Sequence record: PQ818763
DNA from: Shigella phage ShigP1
Length of the DNA: 64,000 nucleotides
Direction: 5' to 3' (one strand)
Below, in pieces: positions 1-28,622 of the stretch. Under the pieces are notes generated by a model. The model ran no database searches. It had not been told where the DNA came from and saw nothing but the letters and a program-made list of their open reading frames with translations. The position numbers were made by a program, and so were the translations under genes. Numbering within the stretch: position 1 is the stretch's first letter; each line of letters opens with the position of its first letter.

Positions 1-658
1 CCTGAAGGATTGTCCAGCCTTCAACCAACCATTTATGGAGGAAGGTTTCAACTTGACTCTCTTCATCTTCACAATAGAAGGTTCGGTCTAACATCAAATA
101 GAACAGACAACGATCAGCAGGGATATTCTCAGTTGCTACCCCCATAAAACCTTTATCGTGCCAGCGTAAACAGGAGGGACGATCTTTGTCCACAAATGCT
201 TCCATAGCTTCCAGTACAGCACGAGGTGTGGTTCGATGCTCAGGGTTTTTGTCGTTCCAACGTTCGATGTTGTTCTTAGGGGGCGTGTCTTCATCTTCAT
301 ACGAACACCAACTTAAAGCTTCAGCTACATGCTTTTCATCACGCCAACGTCTAAAACCTAACATCTTCATATGAGTTCCAGAGTTCCAGATATGCTTGAT
401 TTTACACATATCCATCTCTCGGCTTAACAGGAACTCTTCCCCATCAGCACTACGAACGTTAGCTTCTTCATGCCACACTCGAACGTGCATATTCCATCCA
501 TGAGTTGCCTCATACATGTTAGGGTCGAAGTAGTCATCATACTCTTCATCGTCTTCATCAACGCCACCGTTATAGTTGCGAAGCTGAAGGAACCCATAAC
601 AAGGAGGGTTGACTGTTAAAACATTACCTTCAGTATCTTCTAATGTTACTGGAAACAT
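1..658 (-). CDS. hypothetical protein, partial (start codon at 656-658, C-terminus beyond window start)
   Basis: Hand translation from ATG 656-658 (MFPVTLEDTEGNVLTVNPP...) stays open to position 1; acidic and Trp-rich, no recognised motif. Confidence 0.45.
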   Translation of the reverse strand, partial: MFPVTLEDTEGNVLTVNPPCYGFLQLRNYNGGVDEDDEEYDDYFDPNMYEATHGWNMHVRVWHEEANVRSADGEEFLLSREMDMCKIKHIWNSGTHMKMLGFRRWRDEKHVAEALSWCSYEDEDTPPKNNIERWNDKNPEHRTTPRAVLEAMEAFVDKDRPSCLRWHDKGFMGVATENIPADRCLFYLMLDRTFYCEDEESQVETFLHKWLVEGWTILQ

Positions 659-669
659 TATACCAACCT

Positions 670-1032
670 CTATTGGTTTTTAATCAACTCAATCGACTTA
701 CGAATATAAAGAATATCTCGGAAGTTTCGATAGTTGTTCATAAATTGATGCTTCTGGAACTCAGCTTCTTCCAGAGCTTTCTTTGCTTCTGCGTAGTTTT
801 TACGGGCAAGATGTACAACCCGATCCGGTAACACGTTTGCACGATGGATTAGATACTTATGAGCTTTCATGTTACTTTGCTCACGAGCAATCTTACCTTT
901 AGCAACCTTGATACCATTTGCAATCCAAGCAAGTTCTTGCTCAAGCTCTTCGTTGGACATACCACCGAGGTTTGATGCAACCTTGTTCAGAGTTTCAATA
1001 TTAACGTTGCCCTTGATGGGACGTGTATTCAT
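670..1032 (-). CDS. hypothetical protein (120 aa)
   Basis: ORF track; same strand as neighbours, tight spacing. Confidence 0.5.
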   Translation of the reverse strand: MNTRPIKGNVNIETLNKVASNLGGMSNEELEQELAWIANGIKVAKGKIAREQSNMKAHKYLIHRANVLPDRVVHLARKNYAEAKKALEEAEFQKHQFMNNYRNFRDILYIRKSIELIKNQ

Positions 1033-1204
1033 ACTTACTCCTGTTGTTTACACTCGTCAATAACCCACTGATAAGTGGATTGCCCAGAAAAGAAACACTG
1101 AATAAATCCAGATGTTCTCTGCGTTACCAGTGCTAGTGCACAAATCACTACCGCTGCTGCTAGCAGTTTTAAATCTAATTTAGACATATTTCCTCTCGTT
1201 GAAT

Positions 1205-1231
1205 TTAAAAAAGGACTCTCCGAAAAGAGTC
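1205..1231 (-). terminator. rho-independent terminator (minus strand)
   Basis: Hairpin GACTCT-ccgaaa-AGAGTC at 1214-1231, followed on the minus strand by a T-run (plus-strand A-run 1206-1212). Confidence 0.5.
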
Positions 1232-1297
1232 AAGCTTTAAATACAAAAAGATATTACCCAATATCTGTGGATAACCTGCTCTTAAAATATCTATCCG

Positions 1298-1418
1298 ACG
1301 GATGTTCGAGGAATGTTCCTCTCCCTAGCATCGGCCCCATACGGGAAATATATTAAGATTAGGTTAGTTGAGTCAGAATAACTCACATAGCCCTCCGAAG
1401 AAGGCTATAGGCGTTACT
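1298..1418 (-). repeat. conserved intergenic structured element, copy A
   Basis: About 120 nt shared with 6935-7050: blocks CGGATGTTCGAG, CTCTCCCTAGC, CTCACATAGCCCTC, GGCTATA; three hairpins with compensatory changes between copies. Confidence 0.55.
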
Positions 1419-1422
1419 ACAA

Positions 1423-1641
1423 CTAAAAATCACCTGATTTTACAAAATCATCACTAAGAATTTCGTCAATCTCTTTGCTAGTCAAATCTTTCCTGAACCA
1501 GCAACAAGGAACATTCACCCATTGACCAGAGTTGTTCTCTACAGAGCATAGATTCCCTGTCTTACTCTTGCATTTATAAGATTTTCCTTTATCTAGGCGA
1601 TAGTGTAATCTGTAAACTACAGACACAAGTGTTATCATCAC
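1423..1641 (-). CDS. small Cys-rich protein (72 aa)
   Basis: ORF track; several Cys residues (CKSK...CSVE...PCCW). Confidence 0.45.
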   Translation of the reverse strand: MMITLVSVVYRLHYRLDKGKSYKCKSKTGNLCSVENNSGQWVNVPCCWFRKDLTSKEIDEILSDDFVKSGDF

Positions 1642-1871
1642 TCACCTTTCTTAGCACGATCTTTGGCAGTTTTGCCAGTGCGGATGCGATGAGAAACGTT
1701 AACCAGAGTGCCACCATCAACTACGGTAACGCTCTTGTTTTTAGCCAGATCAAACACAGTCTTCTCTGTACCACCCAAGCGAATTTGCTTAGGTTCGCTG
1801 AAGGTTTGGGTTGATTTGGATTGGAACTGAAACGGTTGACGGATTGCATCGATTGCGCTTACTTTAGACAT
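1638..1871 (-). CDS. hypothetical protein (77 aa)
   Basis: ORF track; AAGGAA Shine-Dalgarno upstream of ATG; 4-nt overlap with downstream gene. Confidence 0.5.
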   Translation of the reverse strand: MSKVSAIDAIRQPFQFQSKSTQTFSEPKQIRLGGTEKTVFDLAKNKSVTVVDGGTLVNVSHRIRTGKTAKDRAKKGE

Positions 1872-1943
1872 AGGGGAAATTCCTTAAAAAATTATGGCTG
1901 CGTAGAGGGAATTCCCTACGCAAATCGGGCCGCCCACAGAGAG

Positions 1944-1961
1944 GCGTCATAGTACTAAAAG
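1944..1961 (-). promoter_or_regulatory. conserved 18-nt intergenic motif GCGTCATAGTACTAAAAG, copy 1
   Basis: Identical 18-mer recurs at 9762-9779; both copies sit just downstream of a minus-strand stop and upstream of a hairpin and the next gene. Confidence 0.4.
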
Positions 1962-2103
1962 GAGGAGAGAAGAGGGCTTATTTAGCTACCTTTTTCTGTC
2001 CGTTTACGAACCAGATAATTGAACCGTCAGGCTGTCGTTGACCGAAGCCTTTCTGGTTAATCATATCGTCATAAGAATATGCTTTACGTCTCATTTGTTT
2101 TCC

Positions 2104-2358
2104 CTACGAAGTTAAGATGATTTCAGCCTTAATAAACTTCTCACCAACAACCATATCACCAGAGATGACACGTAGTTCTCCAGTGCCTAGGTTAACAGCT
2201 CCAGCAGGTTGACAACCCCTGCTTTTAGCTGTCATCATATAAACCTTTTGATTTTGGCACTCTTGGAGAGTGAACACATCTGACATATTTAGATCTCTGA
2301 CGCGGAGGATTTTTTCCTCTTTGTCTTTAACTTTAATGTTAATAATGCTCATATGCAC
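2104..2358 (-). CDS. small protein, paralog family 1
   Basis: ORF track; shares L-x-x-G-[DA]-V-F and C-x-[VA]-N-L-x-x-G motifs with 8 other ORFs in 2104-7748. Confidence 0.5.
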   Translation of the reverse strand: MHMSIINIKVKDKEEKILRVRDLNMSDVFTLQECQNQKVYMMTAKSRGCQPAGAVNLGTGELRVISGDMVVGEKFIKAEIILTS

Positions 2359-2603
2359 TACTCCTGAACCACTGACATACGAATCATTTCTACCTGATCA
2401 TCAAGACCTTTAACAGATAACACACCTGTGGAAAGGTTTACCACAGGAACCCAACCACTGGCTATACGGATGTTACCAGAAGCATTTTCAACCCTCATGT
2501 AATACTGAGGAGAGGCACTTCCGTTCTGAACCACGAAAGGGTTTCCGGGAATGATTGTTTCCAATCGTACCGTATTATCCTTTTTCTTTGGGATGATTTT
2601 CAT
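2358..2603 (-). CDS. small protein, paralog family 1
   Basis: ORF track; tandem with neighbours; VVNLSTG motif. Confidence 0.5.
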   Translation of the reverse strand: MKIIPKKKDNTVRLETIIPGNPFVVQNGSASPQYYMRVENASGNIRIASGWVPVVNLSTGVLSVKGLDDQVEMIRMSVVQE

Positions 2604-2851
2604 TGCGTATTATCCACCAAAAGTTCTGCTGATACAGGAACAACTCGGCACCAGATAGAAGGTGCTGTTACGTTACCATCGGATAGACGAAGAGTAATTG
2701 TTCGATCAGAGTTAACGGTTACATTAGGACTTTCAGACACAGACCCTTTAACATAGAGAGTAGCACTCTCAGGGAATTTAAACACTGCTCCGCTGGGGAG
2801 GGAGTTGAGATCAATCGTGGTCACTTCTTCTTTCTTGTGGGTAATCTTCAT
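2600..2851 (-). CDS. small protein, paralog family 1
   Basis: ORF track; LPSGAVFKF motif; start overlaps upstream stop. Confidence 0.5.
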   Translation of the reverse strand: MKITHKKEEVTTIDLNSLPSGAVFKFPESATLYVKGSVSESPNVTVNSDRTITLRLSDGNVTAPSIWCRVVPVSAELLVDNTQ

Positions 2852-3102
2852 TTAGAATCCTTAATAACGTTAGCTTCAACCTTAACAGGAATAACAGAGA
2901 TGCCCTCAACGGGGCCACTTAAGTGTCCATCTTCCAGTCTGACACACACGACTCGATCTCGTGCAACTTCTACCCAATTAGTAGATGCCGCAGTACAGAC
3001 CATATGAATTGGACCGTTCTCTTCCAGCCGGAAGGTATCGCCCTTCTTCAGAGTGTGGAGTTTCACAGTCTTGATAGTTTTGTTCAATTCGTTAACTTTC
3101 AT
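2848..3102 (-). CDS. small protein, paralog family 1
   Basis: ORF track; LKKGDTFRL motif. Confidence 0.5.
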   Translation of the reverse strand: MKVNELNKTIKTVKLHTLKKGDTFRLEENGPIHMVCTAASTNWVEVARDRVVCVRLEDGHLSGPVEGISVIPVKVEANVIKDSK

Positions 3103-3110
3103 ATTGATTC

Positions 3111-3422
3111 CTATTTAAGTTTGAGGCTAATGTTAAGGTGCATACATGCTCTGTTCTGTACAGCAGCATAACTTCTACCGAGCATGTCAGCCATTCTCTG
3201 AATAGACATGAACCCAGCATTACGGATAAGGAACTGGTCTTCTTCTTCAGACCATTTAACTCGGATTGAAGCTCTTGATATTCCGAATTTAGTACAAGCT
3301 GTGTTAACTGCATTCTCCGTTACATTCATAATCTGAGCAACTTCTTGAACCGAGTACTCTTTGATTAGTCTCCGAAGATTTTCAATCTGCATCGGAGTCC
3401 ATATAGTTCTTCGTGCTTTCAT
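3111..3422 (-). CDS. putative DNA-binding protein with two Myb/SANT-like helix-turn-helix repeats
   Basis: Two repeats of W-x(2)-E-x(2)-L ... hydrophobic helix (WTPMQIENLRRL...; WSEEEDQFLIRN...MADMLGRSYAAVQNR). Confidence 0.45.
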   Translation of the reverse strand: MKARRTIWTPMQIENLRRLIKEYSVQEVAQIMNVTENAVNTACTKFGISRASIRVKWSEEEDQFLIRNAGFMSIQRMADMLGRSYAAVQNRACMHLNISLKLK

Positions 3423-3450
3423 ACATCCTCCAATTAGCTATTATTCAATT

Positions 3451-3596
3451 TGGTTACAGGTGTAGGATTCGAACCTACGCTCGGACTCCCTAGCCATCAC
3501 CAAAGGAATGCATCCAATGGGCATACGGTCATTCGACCACGGGCGACTGCTTTACCGTAGACTCTGCATTACTGAGTCCCATAAGCTATACCTGTA
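3451..3596 (-). ncRNA. tRNA-like stable RNA (about 146 nt), non-canonical
   Basis: 3' end is a canonical T-arm GTAGG-TTCGAAT-CCTAC plus acceptor ACCTGTA-A-CCA; the complementary TACAGGT lies 146 nt upstream; internal region does not fold as a standard tRNA. Confidence 0.3.
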
Positions 3597-4087
3597 ATTA
3601 AAAGGTTGTTCCACATTTACCCTAAAGTTATTGGGGAGTACACTAGCTCTGGGCCACGCTGTAGATATCGGCCTACCTTCCACAGCTAATCAGCTAATGT
3701 ACTCTCCTAATAGTTTATGAATAGGGGGAGGGGACGAATCCTCCCTTATCCTATTAATTAATATTGCATGTAAGACCTAACAATCGGTTGCCTTTGTAGG
3801 AATAAGCGTTATGCTAATCCAGCACTAAACTCCCGCCCCCTTAGTGGGCTGGGTTATTAAAGGGTAACGCCCTTATGGGCTAGTTACATGAATGTTAGTT
3901 TGATAGGAGATCTGAAGTCCTATCTCAAAGGACTCTCGTAAGAATCCTTCACGATATTACTTATTCATCTCTCGTCGGCTATCTCTCCAAGCCAACCAAG
4001 TGTAGGTTTTCAGTTCTTCAAAGTCTTCTGGAGAGAATAGATACTCTTTGAAGGTATCACCAAACCACTTTAAAAATTCTTCAGTCA

Positions 4088-4345
4088 TTAGTCCTCATAC
4101 TTTTTGTTAGGAAGGATGAAATCCCAAAGAGCAGCCCATGATACGAGTGCTATAAATAGTACAGCAATAATAGGCCACAAGAAAACCATAGCTGCTATCT
4201 TTCCGAGGTCTGGCTCACCATCCCAACCTCTGAAACACTGATTACCTTTAACATCTATAATCTTAATCAGAACACCTGATACTACTGATCCTATCAGATA
4301 GGCTATTAACATACTAACAAGACTGGTCACAAGGTTGATCTCCAC
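4088..4345 (-). CDS. small membrane protein (two predicted transmembrane helices)
   Basis: ORF track; hydrophobic stretches LVSMLIAYLIGSVVSGVLI and AAMVFLWPIIAVLFIALVSWAAL. Confidence 0.5.
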   Translation of the reverse strand: MEINLVTSLVSMLIAYLIGSVVSGVLIKIIDVKGNQCFRGWDGEPDLGKIAAMVFLWPIIAVLFIALVSWAALWDFILPNKKYED

Positions 4346-4496
4346 ATGTTTTACAGATCACTGGTGAGTAACTACAGGCAGGGTATACTGACACTCCATC
4401 AAATGTCTCACACCCACAGTCAGGGCATGTACCATTGGATTCCATGTCGTCGTCATCACACACTTCACCGCCACCATAACAGCTCATATGAACTCC

Positions 4497-4718
4497 TTAG
4501 TAAACTAAACCTACAGCCTTAGCATCAGGCTGAGGGACTACCTTTGCGCTAGGGCGATAACCATCCACTGAACCGTTCCAAAGATTGACACAGGTGATAT
4601 ATCCATCGTCTATGATGTCTGTTTTAATCCAGAAGTGTTTATCATGACCAAAAATACTTCCGTTTGGCAGCGTGGACAGCTCAACGGTTTTAAGTGACTG
4701 CTTAGAGTCTAGTTTCAT
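4497..4718 (-). CDS. small protein, paralog family 1
   Basis: ORF track; LPNGSIF and CVNLWNGS motifs. Confidence 0.5.
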   Translation of the reverse strand: MKLDSKQSLKTVELSTLPNGSIFGHDKHFWIKTDIIDDGYITCVNLWNGSVDGYRPSAKVVPQPDAKAVGLVY

Positions 4719-8734: not shown

Positions 8735-9636
8735 TTACCACTCGTAACTTACACCAGCGCCCAGAACAGCGTCACTCTCTGAAGTCATTGCCACTGATGC
8801 TTTAGTTACTACGTTTTCATTGAAACGAGCACTAACACCAATAGCAAGAGCAGATTCACCATCGTAAGCACCTACCCCAGCACCAACAGAGAAAGCAGAT
8901 CCTTGACTTACTTGCGGGATGTTAGCCATTGCAGCCACGCCAGAAATACCAGCAGAGGCATGATCACGGTTACGGTCTACTTGTTTTTGCAAAGAAGCAA
9001 AACGTTTGTTGGTGGATTGTTCCAGAGCTTTGATAGATTTGGCGTTAGCATTAACGGCAGACATATCTGCATCTTTACCATTTTTGCCATTTAATCCGTC
9101 AACGCCATTCAAACCTGCTGCACCAGTTAGGCCAGTTTCGCCTTTCTTACCATCTGCACCAGAATCACCTTTTTCACCTTGAGCGCCATCTTTACCATCA
9201 ATGCCATCTTTACCATTGATGCCATCTTTACCATCAATGCCATCTTTACCATCAATGCCATCTTNNNNNNNNNNNNNNNNNNNNNNNNNNNNNNNNNNNN
9301 NNNNNNNNNNNNNNNNNNNNNNNNNNNNNNNNNNNNNNNNNNNNNNNNNNNNNNNNNNNCAATGCCATCTTTACCATCAATGCCATCTTTACCATCAATG
9401 CCATTAGTACCATTGATGCCAGCCGATCCAGTATCACCTTTTAAGCCCTGCTCTCCGCGATCACCCTTGTCACCTTTCGGACCTTGTTCGCCTTGAATAC
9501 CCTGTTCTCCTTTATCACCTTTCGGCCCCTGCTGGACTTCACACTGTTTAGAGTGTGAGCATTTGTCAGAATGAGCAAAGGATGGGGCACTAATGGCAGA
9601 TAAAACTAGAATAGCTGACAATGCAAATGCTTTCAT
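8735..9636 (-). CDS. secreted collagen-like protein with YadA-type C-terminal anchor (trimeric-autotransporter-like); interrupted by assembly gap
   Basis: Signal peptide MKAFALSAILVLSAISAPSFA; G-X-Y triplets on both sides of the N-run; (IDGKDG)n encoded by an 18-bp tandem repeat; C-terminus GISGVAAMANIPQ...VGAGVGAYDGESALAIGVSARF...LGAGVSYEW matches the YadA anchor pattern; track ORFs 9127-9708 and 8735-9112 are the two halves put out of frame by the gap. Confidence 0.6.
9185..9410 (-). repeat. 18-bp tandem repeat (CATTGATGGTAAAGATGG on the coding strand) with N-run 9265-9359 inside
   Basis: At least 4 copies left of the gap and about 3 right of it; the gap is flanked by identical repeat units. 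Confidence 0.85.
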
Positions 9637-20167: not shown

Positions 20168-22411
20168 ATGGCTAAGCAAAAATATAGTGAAGAGGTGTTG
20201 GACGAGTTACGTGTTGACCTTCAACGTCGTTTTAATTATGCTCAAGGCTACGTGGACATGGCTGTTAAGGGCTATGCTCGTGAAGCTTGGGAATATTTCT
20301 ATGGTAACTTACCTGCACCAGTAACTGCTGGCAGCTCTAGTTGGGTAGATCGTACTGTTTGGGAATCTGTTAACGGTACATTGCAAGATATTATTAACGT
20401 ATTCTGTTCTGGTGATGAAGCAGTTACTTTCGTAGCTGACAACCAACAGGATTCTGATGCTGCTGACGTAGCAACTAAATTAGTTAACCAAATTCTTCTG
20501 CGTGATAATCCGGGATACAATATTATCTCTTCTGCTGCACAAGAATGTCTGGTTACTCGTAACTCTTTTATCAAGTATTATTGGGATGAACAAACTTCTA
20601 CTCAAACTGAAGAAGCTGAAGGTGTACCACCGGAAGCATTGGCTGCATATGTTCAGGGATTAGAAGCTGGTGGACTCAAGAATCTGGAAATCTTCACTGA
20701 AGAAAATGAAGATGGTACAGTAGATGTTAAAGTTACTTACGAACAAACCGTTAAACGTGTGAAAGTTGAATATGTTCCTTCAGAGCAAATCTTTGTTGAC
20801 GAACATGCTACCTCTTTTGCAGATGCACAATACTTCTGTCATCGTGTACGTCGTTCTAAAGAAGATCTGGTTGCTATGGGATTCCCTAAAGATGAGATTG
20901 AAGCATTTAACGACTGGACAGATACAATGGATACCACTCAATCTACAGTTGCTTGGTCTCGTACTGACTGGCGTCAGGATATTGATGCTGATATTGGTAC
21001 AGATACCGAAGATATCGCTTCTATGGTTTGGGTTTATGAGCACTATATTCGTACTGGTGTTCTAGATAAGAATAAAGAGTCTAAACTCTATCAGGTTATT
21101 CAAGCTGGTGAGCATATCCTTCACACTGAAGAAGTAACTCACATTCCGTTTGTAACCTTCTGCCCGTATCCGATTCCGGGTTCCTTCTATGGTCAATCGG
21201 TCTATGACATTACGAAAGATATTCAAGATTTACGTACCGCGTTAGTTCGTGGTTATATTGATAACGTCAACAATGCTAACTATGGTCGATACAAGGCTCT
21301 TGTTGGTGCATACGACCGTCGCTCTCTGCTTGATAACCGTCCCGGTGGAGTGGTTGAAATGGAACGTCAGGACGCTATTGACCTGTTCCCATACCATAAC
21401 CTACCTCAAGGTATTGACGGCCTCCTAGGCATGTCTGAGGAGCTTAAAGAGACACGTACAGGTGTAACCAAACTAGGCATGGGTATCAACCCTGATGTGT
21501 TTAAGAATGATAACGCTTATGCAACCGTAGGCTTGATGATGAATGCTGCACAGAACCGTCTCCGTATGGTATGTCGTAACATTGCTCACAATGGTATGGT
21601 TGAATTGATGCGTGGTATTTACAACCTTATCAGAGAAAATGGTGAAGTTCCTATCGAGGTACAAACCCCTCGTGGTATGATTCAGGTAAATCCAAAACAA
21701 TTACCAGCTCGTCACAATCTTCAAGTTGTTGTAGCTATCTCTCCTAACGAGAAAGCAGAACGTGCACAGAAACTGATTAGCTTGAAACAGCTGATTGCAG
21801 CAGATGCACAGTTAGCACCTCTCTTTGGTTTGGAGCAAGACCGTTACATGACTGCACAGATCTTTGAGTTGATGGGTATTAAAGATACTCATAAATATCT
21901 TCTGCCTCTGGAACAGTATCAGCCTCCAGAACCTTCTCCGATGGAAATCCTCCAGCTCGAGATGACTAAAGCACAGGTTGAGAACGTACAGGCTTCTTCT
22001 CAGAAGATGATTGCTGATGCATTCGACCAACGTGAACGTACTACATTCGAACAGCAGAAAGCTGCGGATGAATTAAGTCTACGTCAGGAAGAGTTGCAAT
22101 TCAAGCAAGAAAATGCAGCAGATGCAATGACTCTGGAAAACCGTAAAGAAGATAACAATGCTACTCTGGAACAAGCTAAGCACAAGTTAGCTCTTATGCA
22201 ACAGCAGGTCCGTCAGTATGAATCTGTACTGAAAGAATTGCAGATGGTTATGTCTCATCAGGTAGACCAAGAGAAGATTGTTCAGCAAGCTCGTGTTCAG
22301 GATAAAACTTTGGAACTCCAAAAGAAAGAAGCTAATGTAACTAAGAAAGAGCAACAAGCTTCTCTCAAAGATTCACGGATTCCAGGCAAACGTCTTGGAA
22401 GTAAAAACTAA
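20168..22411 (+). CDS. portal protein
   Basis: 747 aa ORF directly after the terminase; position and size; C-terminal coiled coil. Confidence 0.65.
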   Translation: MAKQKYSEEVLDELRVDLQRRFNYAQGYVDMAVKGYAREAWEYFYGNLPAPVTAGSSSWVDRTVWESVNGTLQDIINVFCSGDEAVTFVADNQQDSDAADVATKLVNQILLRDNPGYNIISSAAQECLVTRNSFIKYYWDEQTSTQTEEAEGVPPEALAAYVQGLEAGGLKNLEIFTEENEDGTVDVKVTYEQTVKRVKVEYVPSEQIFVDEHATSFADAQYFCHRVRRSKEDLVAMGFPKDEIEAFNDWTDTMDTTQSTVAWSRTDWRQDIDADIGTDTEDIASMVWVYEHYIRTGVLDKNKESKLYQVIQAGEHILHTEEVTHIPFVTFCPYPIPGSFYGQSVYDITKDIQDLRTALVRGYIDNVNNANYGRYKALVGAYDRRSLLDNRPGGVVEMERQDAIDLFPYHNLPQGIDGLLGMSEELKETRTGVTKLGMGINPDVFKNDNAYATVGLMMNAAQNRLRMVCRNIAHNGMVELMRGIYNLIRENGEVPIEVQTPRGMIQVNPKQLPARHNLQVVVAISPNEKAERAQKLISLKQLIAADAQLAPLFGLEQDRYMTAQIFELMGIKDTHKYLLPLEQYQPPEPSPMEILQLEMTKAQVENVQASSQKMIADAFDQRERTTFEQQKAADELSLRQEELQFKQENAADAMTLENRKEDNNATLEQAKHKLALMQQQVRQYESVLKELQMVMSHQVDQEKIVQQARVQDKTLELQKKEANVTKKEQQASLKDSRIPGKRLGSKN

Positions 22412-22420
22412 GGACGTCGA

Positions 22421-22657
22421 ATGAACATTAGACATCAATTTAATAAAGAGCACGCCGCCGCTTTGGCGGCTCTCAACCTTAACGGCAGTCTTGACGCAGC
22501 ATTAGAGGCATTGAAAGAAAGACTCATGACAGAGATAGTTCAAACAGAACCTCATGAGAATAAGAAACGCGAAGATTGTTATCAAAAGTATAAAATGGTT
22601 GGTAGCTTAAAAGAGGTCATAAAAGCTGCTATCAATAGTGCAGGAGATGTTTCATAA
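22421..22657 (+). CDS. hypothetical protein (78 aa)
   Basis: ORF track only. Confidence 0.4.
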   Translation: MNIRHQFNKEHAAALAALNLNGSLDAALEALKERLMTEIVQTEPHENKKREDCYQKYKMVGSLKEVIKAAINSAGDVS

Positions 22658-23733
22658 TGCCACAAGATAATTATATTGACCCGAACGATTTTAAATCTTT
22701 CCTCCAACTGGATGACCTGAAAGGTTCTTTCAAAGAAGAACTCGGTCGATTAGAATCTGAACAAGAACCAGAAGTGGACATTGACGATGAGTTCCCGGAA
22801 AAAGACGGTGACGATTTCGACTTTGATACCGACCTTCTCGGTGAAAGCGATGAGCTTAAGTTCGAAGATGAAGATGGTTGGGAAGATCGTGAAGAGGAAG
22901 GCGAAGTCGAAGAAGATGAAGACGAATCCTCTGAAGCAGAAGAACAAGAGGAAGAAGATTCAAGCGATGCAGAGTATGAAGATGATTCTGCTGACGGTGA
23001 AGGTGAAGTCTTTGATGTAGACTACGAAACCGTTATCACCCTTCCTGATGGACGTGAGATGACTATTGAAGAACTTTCTAATGGCTATCTTACTGGTGCT
23101 GATATGACAGAACGAGAATCAACTCTTCAGCGTCATATGGAAGCATTCGAGGAACGTGTAGTAGGTTTGAAGGATGTATTAGAACTAGCGTCTTTAGAAG
23201 CAGACCGAGTAATTGAAGATTATAACGGTTTTGATTGGGACAAGCTTGCAGTAGAAGATCCTCAAGCATATGTTGAAAACAAACGTTTCCTAGAGAAGTA
23301 CACAGCTCGCCGTCAACAGCTTGAACAGGCTCAGGTCCGTATTAAGCAGGAAGCAGCAGCTAAAGAGCAGGAAGCTTTCCAAGCCAAGAGTATTGAATGT
23401 GTTAATATTCTGAAACGCGAGATTCCAAATTGGGATGAAAACTTATATCAAAACTTAATGCAATACGCAATTGACTTAGGTGCTACTGAAGAAGAAGTAT
23501 TGAAGGAAAACCGTCCGTCTATTTTCCTAGCTCTCCATAAAGCATACCAATTTGATAAAGGTAAGCAACAGGTGATGGCTAAGATTAAACGTCCCGGTGC
23601 TCCACGCAAGGTTGTGAAGTCTGATGCTGCAAAGTCTCGCACTTCCAATAAGCCCGACAACGCTAAGGTTGCCAAGGCATTCGCAGAGGGTCGCGTTAGT
23701 CACGAAGACGCATTCAAATTCCTCGTAGATTAA
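22657..23733 (+). CDS. putative scaffolding protein
   Basis: Very acidic low-complexity N-terminal half, helical C-terminal half; sits between portal and capsid genes. Confidence 0.55.
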   Translation: MPQDNYIDPNDFKSFLQLDDLKGSFKEELGRLESEQEPEVDIDDEFPEKDGDDFDFDTDLLGESDELKFEDEDGWEDREEEGEVEEDEDESSEAEEQEEEDSSDAEYEDDSADGEGEVFDVDYETVITLPDGREMTIEELSNGYLTGADMTERESTLQRHMEAFEERVVGLKDVLELASLEADRVIEDYNGFDWDKLAVEDPQAYVENKRFLEKYTARRQQLEQAQVRIKQEAAAKEQEAFQAKSIECVNILKREIPNWDENLYQNLMQYAIDLGATEEEVLKENRPSIFLALHKAYQFDKGKQQVMAKIKRPGAPRKVVKSDAAKSRTSNKPDNAKVAKAFAEGRVSHEDAFKFLVD

Positions 23734-23773
23734 TCGACAAATTAATTATTAATAGTATAGGAGCTAACATAAC

Positions 23774-24832
23774 ATGGCTAATCCAACTTTATTTGTATCG
23801 TATGACCAGAATGGTAAAAAACTTTCTTTTGCTAACTGGATTTCTGTTCTGTCCCCTCAGGATACCCCGTTCGTATCTATGACCGGTAAAGAGTCTATCA
23901 ACCAGACTATCTTTAGCTGGCAGACCGATGCACTGGCAAGCGTTGACGGTAATAACGCACACGTCGAAGGCTCTCGTGCTGAAGACGGTGAAATGAAACC
24001 GACTGTTATCAAATCTAACGTTACTCAGATTCTGCGTAAGGTTGTTCGTGTTTCTGATACTGCTAACACCACCGCTAACTACGGTCGTGGTCGTGAACTG
24101 ATGTATCAGCTGGAGAAGAAAGGTAAAGAGATCAAGCGTGACCTCGAGAAAATCCTTCTGTCCGGTCAGGCTCGTACCGACGTTCTGGCTGACCAGTATC
24201 TGACTAACTCTGCAACTGATCCTGCTGTTGTTGGTCTGAATGACACCCATGCAGCTCGTAAGACTGGTGCATTCCAGTTCCTGTGTGCTCACGGTGGTCT
24301 GGCTGGTGGCGTTGTTGACAAGACCAAGAATGGTCCTGCTGACCCGGATACTGGTGCAGTGACTGTTAAAGTTGCACAGAATGCTTCTAACCCGACCACT
24401 AACATTGGTTTCGACGAAGCTGATATCTTTGATATGACTCTGCAACTGTATACCGCTGGTTCTGAAGCAGATATCATCATGATTAACCCGGCTCATGCTA
24501 AGATCTTCGCTGGTCTGCAAGAAAATACTCAGGGTTCACGTAAGCGTATCTTTGAGAACACCAAGCAGTTCATCTACGAAGTTAATAGCATCACTGACCC
24601 GCTGGGCCAGAGCTACAAAATCATCGTTAACCGTTGGATGCCTACCGATGCAGTTTACTTCTTCCGTAGCGCTGACTGGACTCAGATGGTTCTGCGTGCT
24701 CCGAAACGTACTGAACTAGCAAAAGATGGTTCTTACGAGAAGTGGATGATTGAAATGGAAGTTGGTCTGCGTCACCGCAACCCGTATGCTTCCGGCGTCC
24801 TGTTCACTGCTGCGGGAAAGGTGGCGGCGTAA
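23774..24832 (+). CDS. major capsid protein
   Basis: 352 aa after the scaffold gene; followed by a frameshift site, an Ig-like ORF and a strong terminator. Confidence 0.65.
   Translation: MANPTLFVSYDQNGKKLSFANWISVLSPQDTPFVSMTGKESINQTIFSWQTDALASVDGNNAHVEGSRAEDGEMKPTVIKSNVTQILRKVVRVSDTANTTANYGRGRELMYQLEKKGKEIKRDLEKILLSGQARTDVLADQYLTNSATDPAVVGLNDTHAARKTGAFQFLCAHGGLAGGVVDKTKNGPADPDTGAVTVKVAQNASNPTTNIGFDEADIFDMTLQLYTAGSEADIIMINPAHAKIFAGLQENTQGSRKRIFENTKQFIYEVNSITDPLGQSYKIIVNRWMPTDAVYFFRSADWTQMVLRAPKRTELAKDGSYEKWMIEMEVGLRHRNPYASGVLFTAAGKVAA
24814..24820 (+). other. candidate programmed -1 ribosomal frameshift site (slippery heptamer G GGA AAG)
   Basis: X XXY YYZ heptamer in the capsid frame, 10 nt before its stop; the -1 frame is open from 24754 and continues into ORF 24844-25356. 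Confidence 0.55.
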
Positions 24833-24843
24833 CAGTAGACAGT

Positions 24844-25356
24844 GTGACTGTTAGCCCTGCGTCTTTAGCAAGTCTAGAGACAGGGGCTACTCGGCAGTTC
24901 ACTGCAAGCGCGGAGAAAAGTGATGGTTCTACCGAAACAACTGGCTTTACTTGGTCAGTGACAGGGGGTGGTTCTATCACTCAGTCGGGTTTGTATACTG
25001 CTCCGAGTGCGTCTCAATCCACTGATGTATCCATTACTGCAACTTTAGAAGGTGTTTCTGGTACAGCAACCATTTCTGAAATTGTTGCTCCTGCTCCTAC
25101 TATTGTAGCTAAGGGTCCAATTACGGGTAAAACTGGTGGTTCCTCCACTAATTTCACTACCATGTTTACTGTAACTAACTCTGCTGCTGCGGATTACACG
25201 TTTGTTGTAACTCCTACAGAAGCCGGTACAGTAAGCGCCGCTGGTGCGTTAACCTTAGATGCTGCTGCAAGTGGCGAAGTTACTGTTCAAGCAAGTTTGA
25301 CAGCTGACCCGTCCATCAATGCAACATGCACTTTTACTGGTGTAACACCTACTTAA
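24844..25356 (+). CDS. Ig-like (Big_2-type) domain, probably made as a C-terminal extension of the capsid protein
   Basis: Ser/Thr/Gly-rich beta-strand pattern VTVSPASLASLETGATRQFTA...FTWSVTGGGSITQSGLYTA; no ATG or ribosome-binding site of its own (track start is GTG); -1 frame relative to the capsid gene. Confidence 0.55.
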   Translation: MTVSPASLASLETGATRQFTASAEKSDGSTETTGFTWSVTGGGSITQSGLYTAPSASQSTDVSITATLEGVSGTATISEIVAPAPTIVAKGPITGKTGGSSTNFTTMFTVTNSAAADYTFVVTPTEAGTVSAAGALTLDAAASGEVTVQASLTADPSINATCTFTGVTPT

Positions 25357-25363
25357 AACTAGA

Positions 25364-25388
25364 CCCTGCCTTCGGGCGGGGTTTTTTC
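25364..25388 (+). terminator. rho-independent terminator
   Basis: CCCTGCC-TTCG-GGCGGGG followed by TTTTTTCG. Confidence 0.7.
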
Positions 25389-25457
25389 GTTTTAAGACCT
25401 ATACAAGCTAGTGTGTAATGTATATTCTTTGTCTACATATAACAAGGAGGACAACCT

Positions 25458-26210
25458 ATGGCAATGCCAGATGTTCAATACCCCATCAATACCTATGGGT
25501 GGCTAAAGAAGGCCGTGGCCCTCTGGGCAGATAGGGACGATGACGAATTTGTTAATCAAATTCCAAACTTTATTAACTTTGCAGAGAAAGAGATTTATCG
25601 TAACTTACGTATTCCTCCTCTGGAAAAAGAAGTGTATTTAGATATTAAAGATGGAGTAGCTTATATTCCTCCTGATTACCTAGAAGCTCAATGGATGATG
25701 AGAGCCAAAGATGGTACAATCTTCCAAGTAACATCTCCTGAAGAGATTAGCTATCGTAGACAGCATGGAACAATTAACCCATCTCACTGGAATAACCAAC
25801 CTGTCAACTTTGCTCGTTTCGGTAGTCGTTTCATTTTCTACCCTAGCATCGAAGCAGATACTCCGTACTACCCTGATGATGGAAGCCCTTTGATTCCAGC
25901 AGAAAACTCAGTGATTCTTAGCTATTATGCAGACCCACCGGAATTCCATGAAGATACAGATACTAGTACTATTCTTACTATAGCACCAGAACTTCTTCTG
26001 TACTTCACCCTACGTCATGCTTGTCTCTTTGTTCAAGATGATAATGGTGTTCAGAAATGGTCAGCATTAGGAAAAGCTATCCTTGATGAAATGGTAGAAC
26101 AGAATAAGAAACAAGAGTACTCAGGTTCACCTATCGCAATTCCGAATAACATGACTCGACTTCAGAGCAGCCTGCCTGATATTTATGGTATTCGTACTTC
26201 TCGTGTATAA
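25458..26210 (+). CDS. virion structural protein (possible head-tail adaptor)
   Basis: Position in the structural operon only. Confidence 0.4.
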   Translation: MAMPDVQYPINTYGWLKKAVALWADRDDDEFVNQIPNFINFAEKEIYRNLRIPPLEKEVYLDIKDGVAYIPPDYLEAQWMMRAKDGTIFQVTSPEEISYRRQHGTINPSHWNNQPVNFARFGSRFIFYPSIEADTPYYPDDGSPLIPAENSVILSYYADPPEFHEDTDTSTILTIAPELLLYFTLRHACLFVQDDNGVQKWSALGKAILDEMVEQNKKQEYSGSPIAIPNNMTRLQSSLPDIYGIRTSRV

Positions 26211-26219
26211 GGAGATAAT

Positions 26220-28622
26220 ATGATCGTTTATAATAACCAAGCACCTGATGCAGTGAATAACGTTGGGCAGTTTGGTGCTACTGAAGGCTCTATCGGGGCT
26301 TATAAGCAAGCAGCAGAATATGCAGCTGACTCCAAATATTGGGCACTGTTAGCAGAATCTAAGTTTGGTACAATTGATGATTTAATCGCTGAAGTAGAAC
26401 GTCTATATCAACAGGGTGTTCTGATGAAGCAGGATATTGAAGATCTTAAGCAGGATTTTAAGGATCAAGATGCTCGTTTGATGACTCTGATTGCCCAAAC
26501 CAACGCAGCAGTATCGGATGCTAATAATGCCGTTGCTCTCATTAACCAAAAACTTATTGAAGTCCAGAATCAGCTTGATGTTCTGTTAGGAATGTCTGTT
26601 GATGTAACAACTCTCCCTCCGGGAACTCCGGCTACTGGCTCTTTTAATCCTAACACTGGTGTAATCTCTTTAGGTATTCCAGAAGGTGATCCCGGAAAAG
26701 ATGGTTCTGTTAAGGATTTGGATACAGCACCTACAGGTGTTCCAGAGCTAGGTGATTTAGGTTTCTATGTTGACAAAGATGACAATACCGTCCACAAAAC
26801 TACTCTAGATAACATTGCTAATTTAATCCCATCTGTTCGTTCTGTCTCTATTAACGGCGGTCCAGCTCTTGATGGAGAGGTTGCTCTAACACTTAACAAA
26901 GAGACGGTAGGTTTAGGGAATGTTCTGAACGTTGCTCAGTACAGTCGTCAAGAGATTAATGACAAGTTTGATAAAACCACCAAGACATATCAATCTAAAG
27001 CAGAAGCTGATGCTGACGCTCAGTATCGCCAAGTTGGTGAGAAGGTCTTAGTTTGGGCAGCTACTAAGTATGAATTTTATACTGTTGCTGCTAACAAAAC
27101 ATTAACTCCTGTTAAAACTGAAGGTAGAATTCTTACTGTTAATTCCCGTTCTCCAGACTCCAGTGGTAATATTGACATTACCATTCCAACAGGAAACCCT
27201 TCTCTATATCTTGGTGAGATGGTAATGTTCCCTTATGACCCAACGAAGAATATCTCCTATCCGGGCGTTCTTCCAGCCGATGGTCGTCTAGTGTCTAAAG
27301 AGTCTGCTTCAGATTTAGGCCCATCCCTTGTCAGTGGACAACTTCCTGTTGTTTCTGAAACTGAATGGCAAGCAGGGGCTAAACAATACTTCTCTTGGGG
27401 TAAATTGGCAGATGGTATTACCGATGCAGATTCTACTAATTTTATCAACATTCGACTTCCTGATTGGACTGGAGGGGAGGCAATAAGAGCACCAGATTCT
27501 GATAAAGACTCTCAGTACAATGGGTCTGTACAGGCTCAGAAACCTTATGTTGTTACTGTAAATAACCAAGCTCCTGATGAGATTACTGGTAATGTGAACA
27601 TCTCCAGATCAATTTTAGGTGCTGCCGCTTCTGGTACAAACTCTGATATAACATCCCTCACGGGACTCACTACAGCACTGTCTGTCACACAAGGAGGCAC
27701 TGGAGCTAAAGACGCTGCTAGTGCTCGTTCTAATCTAGGTCTNNNNNNNNNNNNNNNNNNNNNNNNNNNNNNNNNNNNNNNNNNNNNNNNNNNNNNNNNN
27801 NNNNNNNNNNNNNNNNNNNNNNNNNNNNNNNNNNNNNNTGCTGCTAGTGCTCGTTCTAATCTAGGGTTGGGAAGTGTTTCCACTCTGGATAATGTACCTA
27901 TTGCTAATGGTGGGACAGGGGCTGGAGATGCTGCTGGTGCAAGGTTCAATATTGGAGCGCTAAGTAACACCCCAGCAAATTCAGGCGTAGGTGGTACTGG
28001 GGATCGTGTCCAACATGCCTCCGGGAACGGCCTGTTTACTTTAGACTTGTTTAACTGCTACTGGTATATGCAGCCAGAGGATACTAACTTCTGGATTGCC
28101 CACGGTGTGTCATATGCAGGGTCTGGTGGCGAAGCCTCACAATACGGTCGCATATCTTACGCAATAAAGATTGCAGACGGAACAATAAAATATGTCCATT
28201 GTCTTACAAACAAAAACACCACTGTTGATGTAAACGGATTTATCAAAGCGGCATCTCCGGTAGTTCATATTTACTCCGACGGTCGATATGAGACGAACGA
28301 GGAATCTGAGGGGGTTAATGTCATTCGGCAAGGTGTTGGTGAGTACTTGATTACCGGTTGCCTTGGCTTAAACGCAGATGCAAAATGGGGAGGCATTGAC
28401 GGCGGCTTTGAAATCCCTACTGACCGCAACAAACAACCTAGGGTTTGGCTGGACTATGAGATTAAAGAAGATGGTTCTATTTTAGTTAAAACCCATCACA
28501 GAACCCATCCAACCTCTCCGGTTTTTGCTAGAAATGAGATAGAAGGTTTTTCTGACGGTGATCCTATTGATATCCCGAGTGATGCTTTTATTTCAGTTCG
28601 TGTTGAAATGCCTTCTGAGTAA
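26220..28622 (+). CDS. tail fibre or tail spike protein, contains assembly gap
   Basis: 800 aa; repeated motif AASARSNLG either side of N-run 27743-27838; Gly-rich repeats GGTGA...AAGARFNIG. Confidence 0.55.
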   Translation: MIVYNNQAPDAVNNVGQFGATEGSIGAYKQAAEYAADSKYWALLAESKFGTIDDLIAEVERLYQQGVLMKQDIEDLKQDFKDQDARLMTLIAQTNAAVSDANNAVALINQKLIEVQNQLDVLLGMSVDVTTLPPGTPATGSFNPNTGVISLGIPEGDPGKDGSVKDLDTAPTGVPELGDLGFYVDKDDNTVHKTTLDNIANLIPSVRSVSINGGPALDGEVALTLNKETVGLGNVLNVAQYSRQEINDKFDKTTKTYQSKAEADADAQYRQVGEKVLVWAATKYEFYTVAANKTLTPVKTEGRILTVNSRSPDSSGNIDITIPTGNPSLYLGEMVMFPYDPTKNISYPGVLPADGRLVSKESASDLGPSLVSGQLPVVSETEWQAGAKQYFSWGKLADGITDADSTNFINIRLPDWTGGEAIRAPDSDKDSQYNGSVQAQKPYVVTVNNQAPDEITGNVNISRSILGAAASGTNSDITSLTGLTTALSVTQGGTGAKDAASARSNLGXXXXXXXXXXXXXXXXXXXXXXXXXXXXXXXXXAASARSNLGLGSVSTLDNVPIANGGTGAGDAAGARFNIGALSNTPANSGVGGTGDRVQHASGNGLFTLDLFNCYWYMQPEDTNFWIAHGVSYAGSGGEASQYGRISYAIKIADGTIKYVHCLTNKNTTVDVNGFIKAASPVVHIYSDGRYETNEESEGVNVIRQGVGEYLITGCLGLNADAKWGGIDGGFEIPTDRNKQPRVWLDYEIKEDGSILVKTHHRTHPTSPVFARNEIEGFSDGDPIDIPSDAFISVRVEMPSE

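Follow-up and report, generated by a model that had tools for sequence, protein, structure and literature searches.

The capsid locus of Shigella phage ShigP1 (PQ818763) raises the question of how an Ig-like open reading frame, lying out of frame behind the major capsid gene, comes to be translated. A preliminary description of the window, by which we mean the whole 64,000-nt stretch of DNA that was analysed, had proposed that the two are fused by a candidate -1 programmed frameshift. Our results argue that positions 24814-24820 are very probably the -1 programmed ribosomal frameshift site of a Kuravirus major capsid gene, with a predicted long form that carries two Ig-like domains. Frameshifting of the capsid gene at this locus is already known from papers or sequence records on phiEco32, SU10, Paul, YF01 and Privateer. 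Added by the present analysis are the conservation of synonymous positions past the slip, the routes by which other lineages arrive at a capsid-Ig fusion, and the 1-nt insertion that truncates the extension in SU10 only.

Judged by sequence similarity, the window comes from a phiEco32/SU10-like coliphage, a Kuravirus. Positions 23774-25400 share 98-99.4% nucleotide identity with many Escherichia Kuravirus genomes, including EK5 and SkaterBoy_Bas90, and the values for phiEco32 and SU10 are 98.4% and 98.0%. The genes are ordered portal (20168-22411), a small ORF, scaffold (22657-23733), major capsid (23774-24832), adaptor (25458-26210) and tail fibre; the portal-scaffold-capsid-adaptor order is the same in the annotation of SU10 and phiEco32, and the gene 3' of the capsid unit matches Pfam SU10_adaptor. 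The capsid ORF matches Pfam SU10_MCP (PF17236; E 9e-77, 258.8 bits, cut-off 24.1), and its product has 100% protein identity with several Kuravirus records. The GGAG sequence upstream of it is the sole ribosome entry site for both the short and the long capsid product. The unit ends at the strong terminator that had been described after the Ig-like ORF, a stem-loop of 10 pairs, 6 being G-C, with a run of T behind it, and a terminator is annotated at the equivalent place in the SU10 and Paul records. The features of the locus are as follows.

23760-23763, plus strand: Shine-Dalgarno sequence GGAG of the major capsid gene (anti-SD duplex -6.5 kcal/mol).
23774-24832, plus strand: major capsid protein gene, 0 frame, 352 aa, 38.7 kDa (ORF; SU10_MCP match).
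24814-24820, plus strand: slippery heptamer G GGA AAG in the X XXY YYZ register (sequence, conservation and literature).
24820-25356, plus strand: -1 frame extension of 178 codons plus TAA, giving a predicted fusion of 527 aa and 55.6 kDa (open frame, dN/dS, PHROG match).
24826-24856, plus strand: candidate hairpin H1, GGC.GUAACAGU / ACUGUUAGCC, pairing 24830-24836 with 24847-24853 (MFE -10.3 kcal/mol, z -1.0).
24830-24832, plus strand: TAA, the 0-frame stop of the short capsid protein (sequence and ORF).
24835-25068, plus strand: predicted Ig-like domain 1, Pfam Big_2 (PF02368 match; AF2 beta-sandwich).
24854-24887, plus strand: candidate hairpin H2 (RNAalifold; 98.9% of cells paired).
25096-25353, plus strand: predicted Ig-like domain 2, a beta-sandwich (AF2 model; Foldseek).
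25361-25394, plus strand: intrinsic terminator at the end of the capsid transcription unit (stem-loop 25361-25384).

Around the heptamer, the capsid frame reads GCG GGA AAG GTG GCG GCG TAA, which confirms the X XXY YYZ register and leaves 9 nt (24821-24829) before the TAA. Beginning at 24754, just behind a TGA at 24751-24753, the -1 frame runs without a stop, as had been claimed, through ORF 24844-25356 to the TAA at 25354-25356. Translation across the slip would give ...TAAGK-GGGVTVDSVTVSPASL..., identical to the junction in the preliminary description. The GGGAAAG motif alone is uninformative, because the window holds 8 bare copies against 6.7 expected; its register and its context are what count. 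Within ORFs of at least 150 aa, the window has 15 in-register X XXY YYZ heptamers, behind which the -1 frame stays open for a median of 10 codons. For GGGAAAG at 24814-24820 this stretch is 178 codons, the next longest being 16, and it alone among the 15 passes its 0-frame stop in the -1 frame. In E. coli, G_GGA_AAG counts as a highly shift-prone heptamer (PMC5009743). Three papers (PMC4281155, PMC7881722, PMC9965538) and a note in the GenBank record of phage Paul identify GGGAAAG as the place of slippage. Inspection of the window sequence found no SD-like stimulatory sequence upstream of the heptamer.

Comparison with relatives shows that GGGAAAG is invariant and in register in all 15 genomes compared (the window, SU10, Paul, phiEco32, KBNP1711, NJ01, L014, MLP3, Bas94, Bas86, E20-1, MN05, TH34, Privateer and Cronobacter vB_CsaP_009). 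It is kept in Privateer and vB_CsaP_009, whose capsid proteins are ~57% identical to that of the window. The bases directly 3' of it vary (GTGGCGGCG, GCGGGAGCG, GTAGCGGCGGCG, TTGGATCCGC, and TAA at once in Privateer), and the flanking capsid C-terminal residues and the linker are variable while the heptamer stays fixed. Its conservation at the nucleotide level exceeds what the protein requires, as the surrounding residues differ in Privateer and vB_CsaP_009. A -1 extension of 169 to >545 aa follows in 14 of the 15 genomes. The lone exception is SU10, in which a 1-nt insertion at alignment column 36 ends the extension after 11 codons, in agreement with PMC9965538.

It could be argued that the Ig-like ORF is translated on its own, as a gene that starts at GTG 24844 and is perhaps reached by ribosomes that reinitiate once they have terminated at the capsid TAA. 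This GTG, with which the ORF reported by the ORF finder begins, sits 12 nt past the capsid stop; most GenBank records give a separate CDS named 'Ig domain containing protein', and the authors of the SU10 cryo-EM study took gp10 as a separate protein (PMC9509320). We consider separate initiation very improbable, since the start signals are not maintained. The GTG is changed to GTA in 6 of 11 distinct relatives (Paul, NJ01, KBNP1711, E20-1, Bas86 and TH34), and the best anti-Shine-Dalgarno duplex before it reaches just -1.7 kcal/mol, compared with -6.0 to -11.4 kcal/mol for six neighbouring genes. No ATG occurs in frame before residue 115 of the extension, and where gene callers place an ATG start in other phages (MSDGST...), the window has a codon for Lys. 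The earlier observation that the ORF has no ATG or ribosome-binding site of its own thus holds. Moreover, the starts annotated in different records disagree and fall inside the first beta-sandwich. Both the conserved stretch GGGVTVDS and the opening beta-strand of the model, which begins at extension residue 6, are encoded 5' of the GTG. A separate gene would also leave unexplained the invariance of the in-register GGGAAAG across capsid proteins that are 57% identical. The two possibilities predict different peptides. The predicted tryptic peptide GGGVTVDSVTVSPASLASLETGATR is impossible from an independently initiated product, because its first eight residues are encoded 5' of GTG 24844; the predicted chymotryptic peptide across the capsid-Ig junction is TAAGKGGGVTVDSVTVSPASL.

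Another possibility is decay: the out-of-frame layout would be what is left of a former in-frame capsid-Ig fusion, or of a decoration gene since lost, with no useful level of expression. SU10 is viable without the extension, and none is present in relatives such as Vp_R1. Decay is nevertheless at odds with the long form having been seen in Privateer virions by mass spectrometry (PMC7881722), with a frame intact in 14 of the 15 genomes, and with the extensions of Paul, E20-1 and Bas86, which have grown by additional modules. It is also at odds with purifying selection on the extension. Against phiEco32, NJ01, L014 and KBNP1711, the dN/dS pairs are 0.016/0.080, 0.28/1.24, 0.13/0.67 and 0.13/0.65, a ratio of ~0.2 at dS up to 1.2, and substitutions pile up at codon position 3 of the -1 frame (e.g. 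42/38/98). This coding signature argues that the extension is translated, and we regard a disused remnant as highly unlikely. A change of frame by transcriptional slippage of RNA polymerase instead of the ribosome, for which nothing at the window site speaks specifically and which is conceivable alongside ribosomal slippage at the six-A site A AAA AAG found at the homologous place in L022, can be dismissed as just as unlikely, because the window has runs of only G3 and A3, too short for productive polymerase slippage, and because conservation of the X XXY YYZ register is the signature of tandem tRNA slippage.

What the extension encodes is indicated by profile and structure comparisons. The search with an Ig-like domain profile gave a Big_2 (PF02368) match on extension residues 6-83 that is marginal, at 24.8 bits where the gathering score is 22.8, and PHROG 13745, 'Ig domain containing protein', matches the extension with E 2e-80. 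The Pfam search gave no significant match for domain 2 (25096-25353). An AlphaFold2 model built from an input of 22 sequences has a pLDDT of 96.7 and shows two all-beta domains. Its best Foldseek match in the PDB is to the tandem Big domains of Leptospira LigA (E 6e-11); other matches include many tandem Ig proteins, the nozzle Ig domains of SU10 and the BIG2 domain of the phi29 capsid protein. The module of domain 2 is repeated several times in the 545-aa extension of phage Paul. A broad homologue search with the extension returned close Kuravirus-like relatives and a few weak Big_2 proteins only, and served just to deepen the input to the structure model. On the model, the extension is predicted to consist of two Ig-like beta-sandwich domains, so that the Ig-like character described earlier is borne out and the single domain is not.

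The proposal of a -1 programmed frameshift is therefore supported by the register, the conservation of the heptamer, the -1 coding signature, the missing initiation signals and the Ig-like fold established here, and by the literature, from which the long product is known in virions of relatives. Under the frameshift reading, most ribosomes would read GGA AAG GTG GCG GCG TAA and make the 352-aa HK97-type capsid protein. A minority would slip back by one base, with tRNA-Gly and tRNA-Lys on G GGA AAG re-pairing with GGG AAA, and would read 178 further codons in the -1 frame to give the 527-aa fusion. This long form would comprise the capsid protein, a Gly-rich linker and the two Ig-like beta-sandwich domains, and would be co-assembled in the prolate head with the Ig domains outside. 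The predicted masses of 38.7 and 55.6 kDa match the forms of 38.5 and 55.4 kDa reported for SU10 (PMC4281155). By analogy with other G_GGA_AAG sites, the efficiency of frameshifting is probably a few percent. The Ig domains could possibly serve in weak adhesion to carbohydrate of the cell surface or of mucus, or in capsid decoration. Independent support for capsid-Ig fusions as genuine proteins of this clade comes from the in-frame fused capsid genes of Salmonella phage 7-11 and ECO319P1.

Is there a stimulatory RNA element, such as a hairpin or pseudoknot at a spacing of 5-9 nt, downstream of the slip site? Candidate hairpin H1 starts 5 nt 3' of the heptamer, a spacing that is 8 nt in Paul, and Privateer has an unrelated hairpin 6 nt downstream of the heptamer. 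The 7-bp core of H1 is invariant in 11 distinct sequences, including the wobble bases of the stem. In H2, compensatory changes are found at two pairs, UA/GC/AU at columns 55-69 and GC/UG at columns 56-68. Compared with shuffled sequence, the hairpins predicted downstream in the window, Paul and Privateer show no gain in stability (z -0.2 to -1.5, values of -1.0 and -1.2 among them). Across the 11 sequences, 48 codons have an invariant, degenerate amino acid, and the third base is invariant in 8 of them; these fall in 6 of 14 within codons 1-26 and 2 of 34 beyond (Fisher p 0.005, for a post hoc comparison among related sequences). This conservation at synonymous sites suggests that a constrained RNA element may lie just 3' of the slip site, and the downstream hairpins are possible stimulators of frameshifting. 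In the segment 24826-24900, an ACUGUU sequence can pair alternatively with AACAGU upstream or CAGUU downstream.

A different structure, a stem-loop around the slip site (CTGCTGC-GGGAAAG-GCGGCGG), was proposed in the SU10 paper (PMC4281155). It does fold in the window (-13.9 kcal/mol, z -2.5). We rejected it as the stimulator: by manual pairing its arms are unpaired in KBNP1711 and E20-1 (CCGCTGC versus GCGGGAG or GTGGAGG), and its 5' arm would be within the ribosome during the slip.

We would venture a broader proposal, which we hold tentatively and think somewhat less probable than its being wrong in some part. A conserved RNA element might form at 24826-24900 and tune the ratio of short to long capsid protein, and the clade of prolate podophages might have arrived at a capsid-Ig subunit in substoichiometric amounts in four or more interchangeable ways, namely slippage at G_GGA_AAG, at the non-canonical G_GUA_AAG or at A_AAA_AAG, and duplication of the capsid gene with in-frame fusion.

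The main value of these results lies in annotation and no new biological question is opened. Most GenBank records show the Ig-like ORF as free-standing, with arbitrary starts, and not as part of a joined capsid CDS, and the affected records are those of therapeutic-candidate coliphages. Joined capsid CDSs are found in RefSeq for Paul, with a note that cites PMID 18294652, and for Privateer. A capsid subunit bearing Ig domains is a candidate for adherence to mucus or the cell surface, which bears on phage therapy with Kuravirus. The results also bear on how the capsid structure of SU10 is read. In the cryo-EM study of SU10, neither Ig density nor a band of the long form was seen (PMC9509320, PMC9965538). 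The density is lacking because the strain-specific 1-nt insertion cuts the extension to 11 aa, whereas the extension of the window is intact. The case of SU10 shows that a phage can do without the extension under laboratory conditions.

Among known systems, gp11/gp12 of phiEco32 represents the same locus as the window, as do its counterparts in SU10, Paul, YF01, NJ01 and other Kuravirus-like phages. Compared with phiEco32, the window has the same heptamer, the same linker and a 178-aa extension at 97% amino-acid identity, with 5 differences in the extension. The long capsid form of phiEco32 is known through sources that cite it (PMC7881722 and the GenBank note for Paul); for SU10, the slippage site GGGAAAG and both forms of the protein were described 'as in phiEco32' (PMC4281155), and frameshifting was described for YF01 and the whole Kuravirus-like group (PMC9965538). 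The 'frameshift' in another Kuravirus paper (PMC11281504) refers to bacterial mutants.

Privateer, a Proteus phage, is like the window in that an in-register GGGAAAG ends a homologous capsid gene (57% identity) and leads into a -1 frame extension, of 169 aa, with Ig-like domains; its minor capsid protein made by frameshifting at GGGAAAG was identified by mass spectrometry of virions (PMC7881722). It differs in that the heptamer abuts the stop (GGGAAAG TAA) and in that its extension, with I-set and Big_2 domains, is not homologous in sequence to the Big_2 and unclassified beta-sandwich of the window.

T3 gene 10 and T7 10A/10B are likewise cases in which a -1 frameshift near the end of a podophage capsid gene gives a minor species with a C-terminal extension. 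Their capsid family has no relation to the capsid of the window at the level of sequence. The slip site in T7 and T3 differs from the G GGA AAG of the window. The extension of T3 is Ig-like, as in the window, and that of T7 10B is not (PMC5009743). The parallel with T7 10A/10B drawn in the preliminary description is apt for the capsid frameshift and not for the Ig-like extension, for which T3 gene 10 is the closer case. Lambda G/GT resembles the window in its low-level -1 slippage, but there the gene encodes a tail assembly chaperone, both products are absent from the virion, and tail assembly is controlled by their ratio. Levin et al. are said to have reported in 1993 that lambda G/GT slips at G GGA AAG. 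Its frameshift rate is ~3.5% (PMC9965538).

In other phages the Ig-like domain is joined to the capsid protein by other means. The gp8 of phi29 is also a capsid protein of a prolate-headed podophage with a C-terminal Big_2 domain (Foldseek, 28% identity over 108 columns), but carries the domain on every subunit, without recoding. Salmonella phage 7-11 encodes a 585-aa protein in which SU10_MCP and Big_2 are joined in frame, also without recoding, and in both 7-11 and ECO319P1 the long form comes from a second, duplicated capsid gene.

In the Lahexavirus-like Aeromonas phages LAh_9 and L017-L020, the -1 frame is open past the capsid stop, and the only slip site available is G GUA AAG. The extensions of these phages contain two Big_2 domains or one I-set domain, and the record of LAh_9 annotates a separate I-set protein. 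A non-targeted search of the literature found no report of the G_GUA_AAG site in Lahexavirus-like Aeromonas phages.

The recoding variants G_GGA_AAG, G_GUA_AAG and A_AAA_AAG all have A_AAG in common, which is known as a minimal -1 shift site in E. coli (PMC5009743). Adding Ig-like domains to phage structural proteins by frameshifting is indeed an established habit, as had been suggested for this locus: C-terminal Ig-like domains derived by frameshifting are found on the coat proteins of T3, A2, A118, A500 and PSA (PMC5009743). In a view cited in the same paper, whether an Ig domain is joined in frame or by frameshift reflects chance landing followed by selection, and the varied routes to capsid-Ig described here fit this view.

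The major capsid locus varies among the relatives of ShigP1, in the reading frames over the capsid stop and in the number of capsid genes. The features discussed are listed below, those of related phages in the coordinates of their own loci.

Window 24830-24900: two mutually exclusive predicted RNA pairings, 3' of the slip site
SU10 locus (L001), about 3575-3585, corresponding to window 24845-24850: 1-nt insertion
Aeromonas phage LAh_9 locus (L009), 3400-3700, and L017-L020 (Lahexavirus-like Aeromonas phages), 3861-4430: -1 frame over the capsid stop
Salmonella phage 7-11 locus (L005), 1482-4258, and ECO319P1 locus (L008), 2492-4596: tandem capsid genes
Aeromonas phage APT65 locus (L010), 569-3427: three paralogous major capsid genes in tandem
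Window 9265-9359 (95 bases) and 27743-27838 (96 bases): runs of N
Phage MLP3 locus (L023), 2882-3394: HNH homing endonuclease gene

In SU10, one nucleotide is inserted (GACACTGTCTACTG vs GACAGTGTGACTG), which closes the -1 frame after 11 codons and shifts the Ig ORF into the capsid 0 frame, behind two stop codons. Read off the sequence without folding, the insertion would also lengthen the candidate hairpin downstream of the slip site (H1) to 10 bp. A 55.4 kDa form was reported for SU10 in 2014 (PMC4281155) and is absent in the 2022 structure (PMC9509320). The insertion conflicts with the earlier report and is consistent with the missing long form in the later structure.

In the window, ACUGUU (24847-24852) can pair upstream with AACAGU (24831-24836) or downstream with (G/A)CAGUU (about 24895-24900). 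The long-range pairing is favoured by RNAalifold, whereas the short hairpin is favoured by local folding.

In the Lahexavirus-like Aeromonas phages, the homologous capsid gene lacks GGGAAAG at its 3' end, and the non-canonical G GUA AAG, with an A_AAG core, is the sole candidate for a slip site. No stop codon nonetheless interrupts the -1 frame between a point 61 nt ahead of the capsid stop and 89-170 codons past it, and the extension codes for either a pair of Big_2 domains or a single I-set domain, annotated in LAh_9 as a separate 'immunoglobulin I-set domain protein'. The literature searched, in a search not targeted at this question, held no report of a capsid frameshift in these phages.

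Salmonella phage 7-11 and ECO319P1 carry two capsid genes in tandem, one of them short; the other (585 and 361 aa, respectively) is fused in frame to an extension that contains Big_2. Here gene duplication, rather than frameshifting, offers a route to a decorated subunit present in the minority. In APT65, the paralogues of 310, 310 and 307 aa are followed by a 428-aa hypothetical protein, and they may be linked to a prolate head built from distinct cap and body subunits. Three major capsid genes in a row are unusual among tailed phages.

The second run of N lies within an 800-aa tail fibre ORF (26220-28622), flanked by two copies of the peptide AASARSNLG, and is probably a repeat that was masked or left unresolved. 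In MLP3, the endonuclease gene is inserted ahead of the adaptor gene, past the terminator that closes the capsid/Ig unit; in the window, this position holds just a 100-nt spacer.
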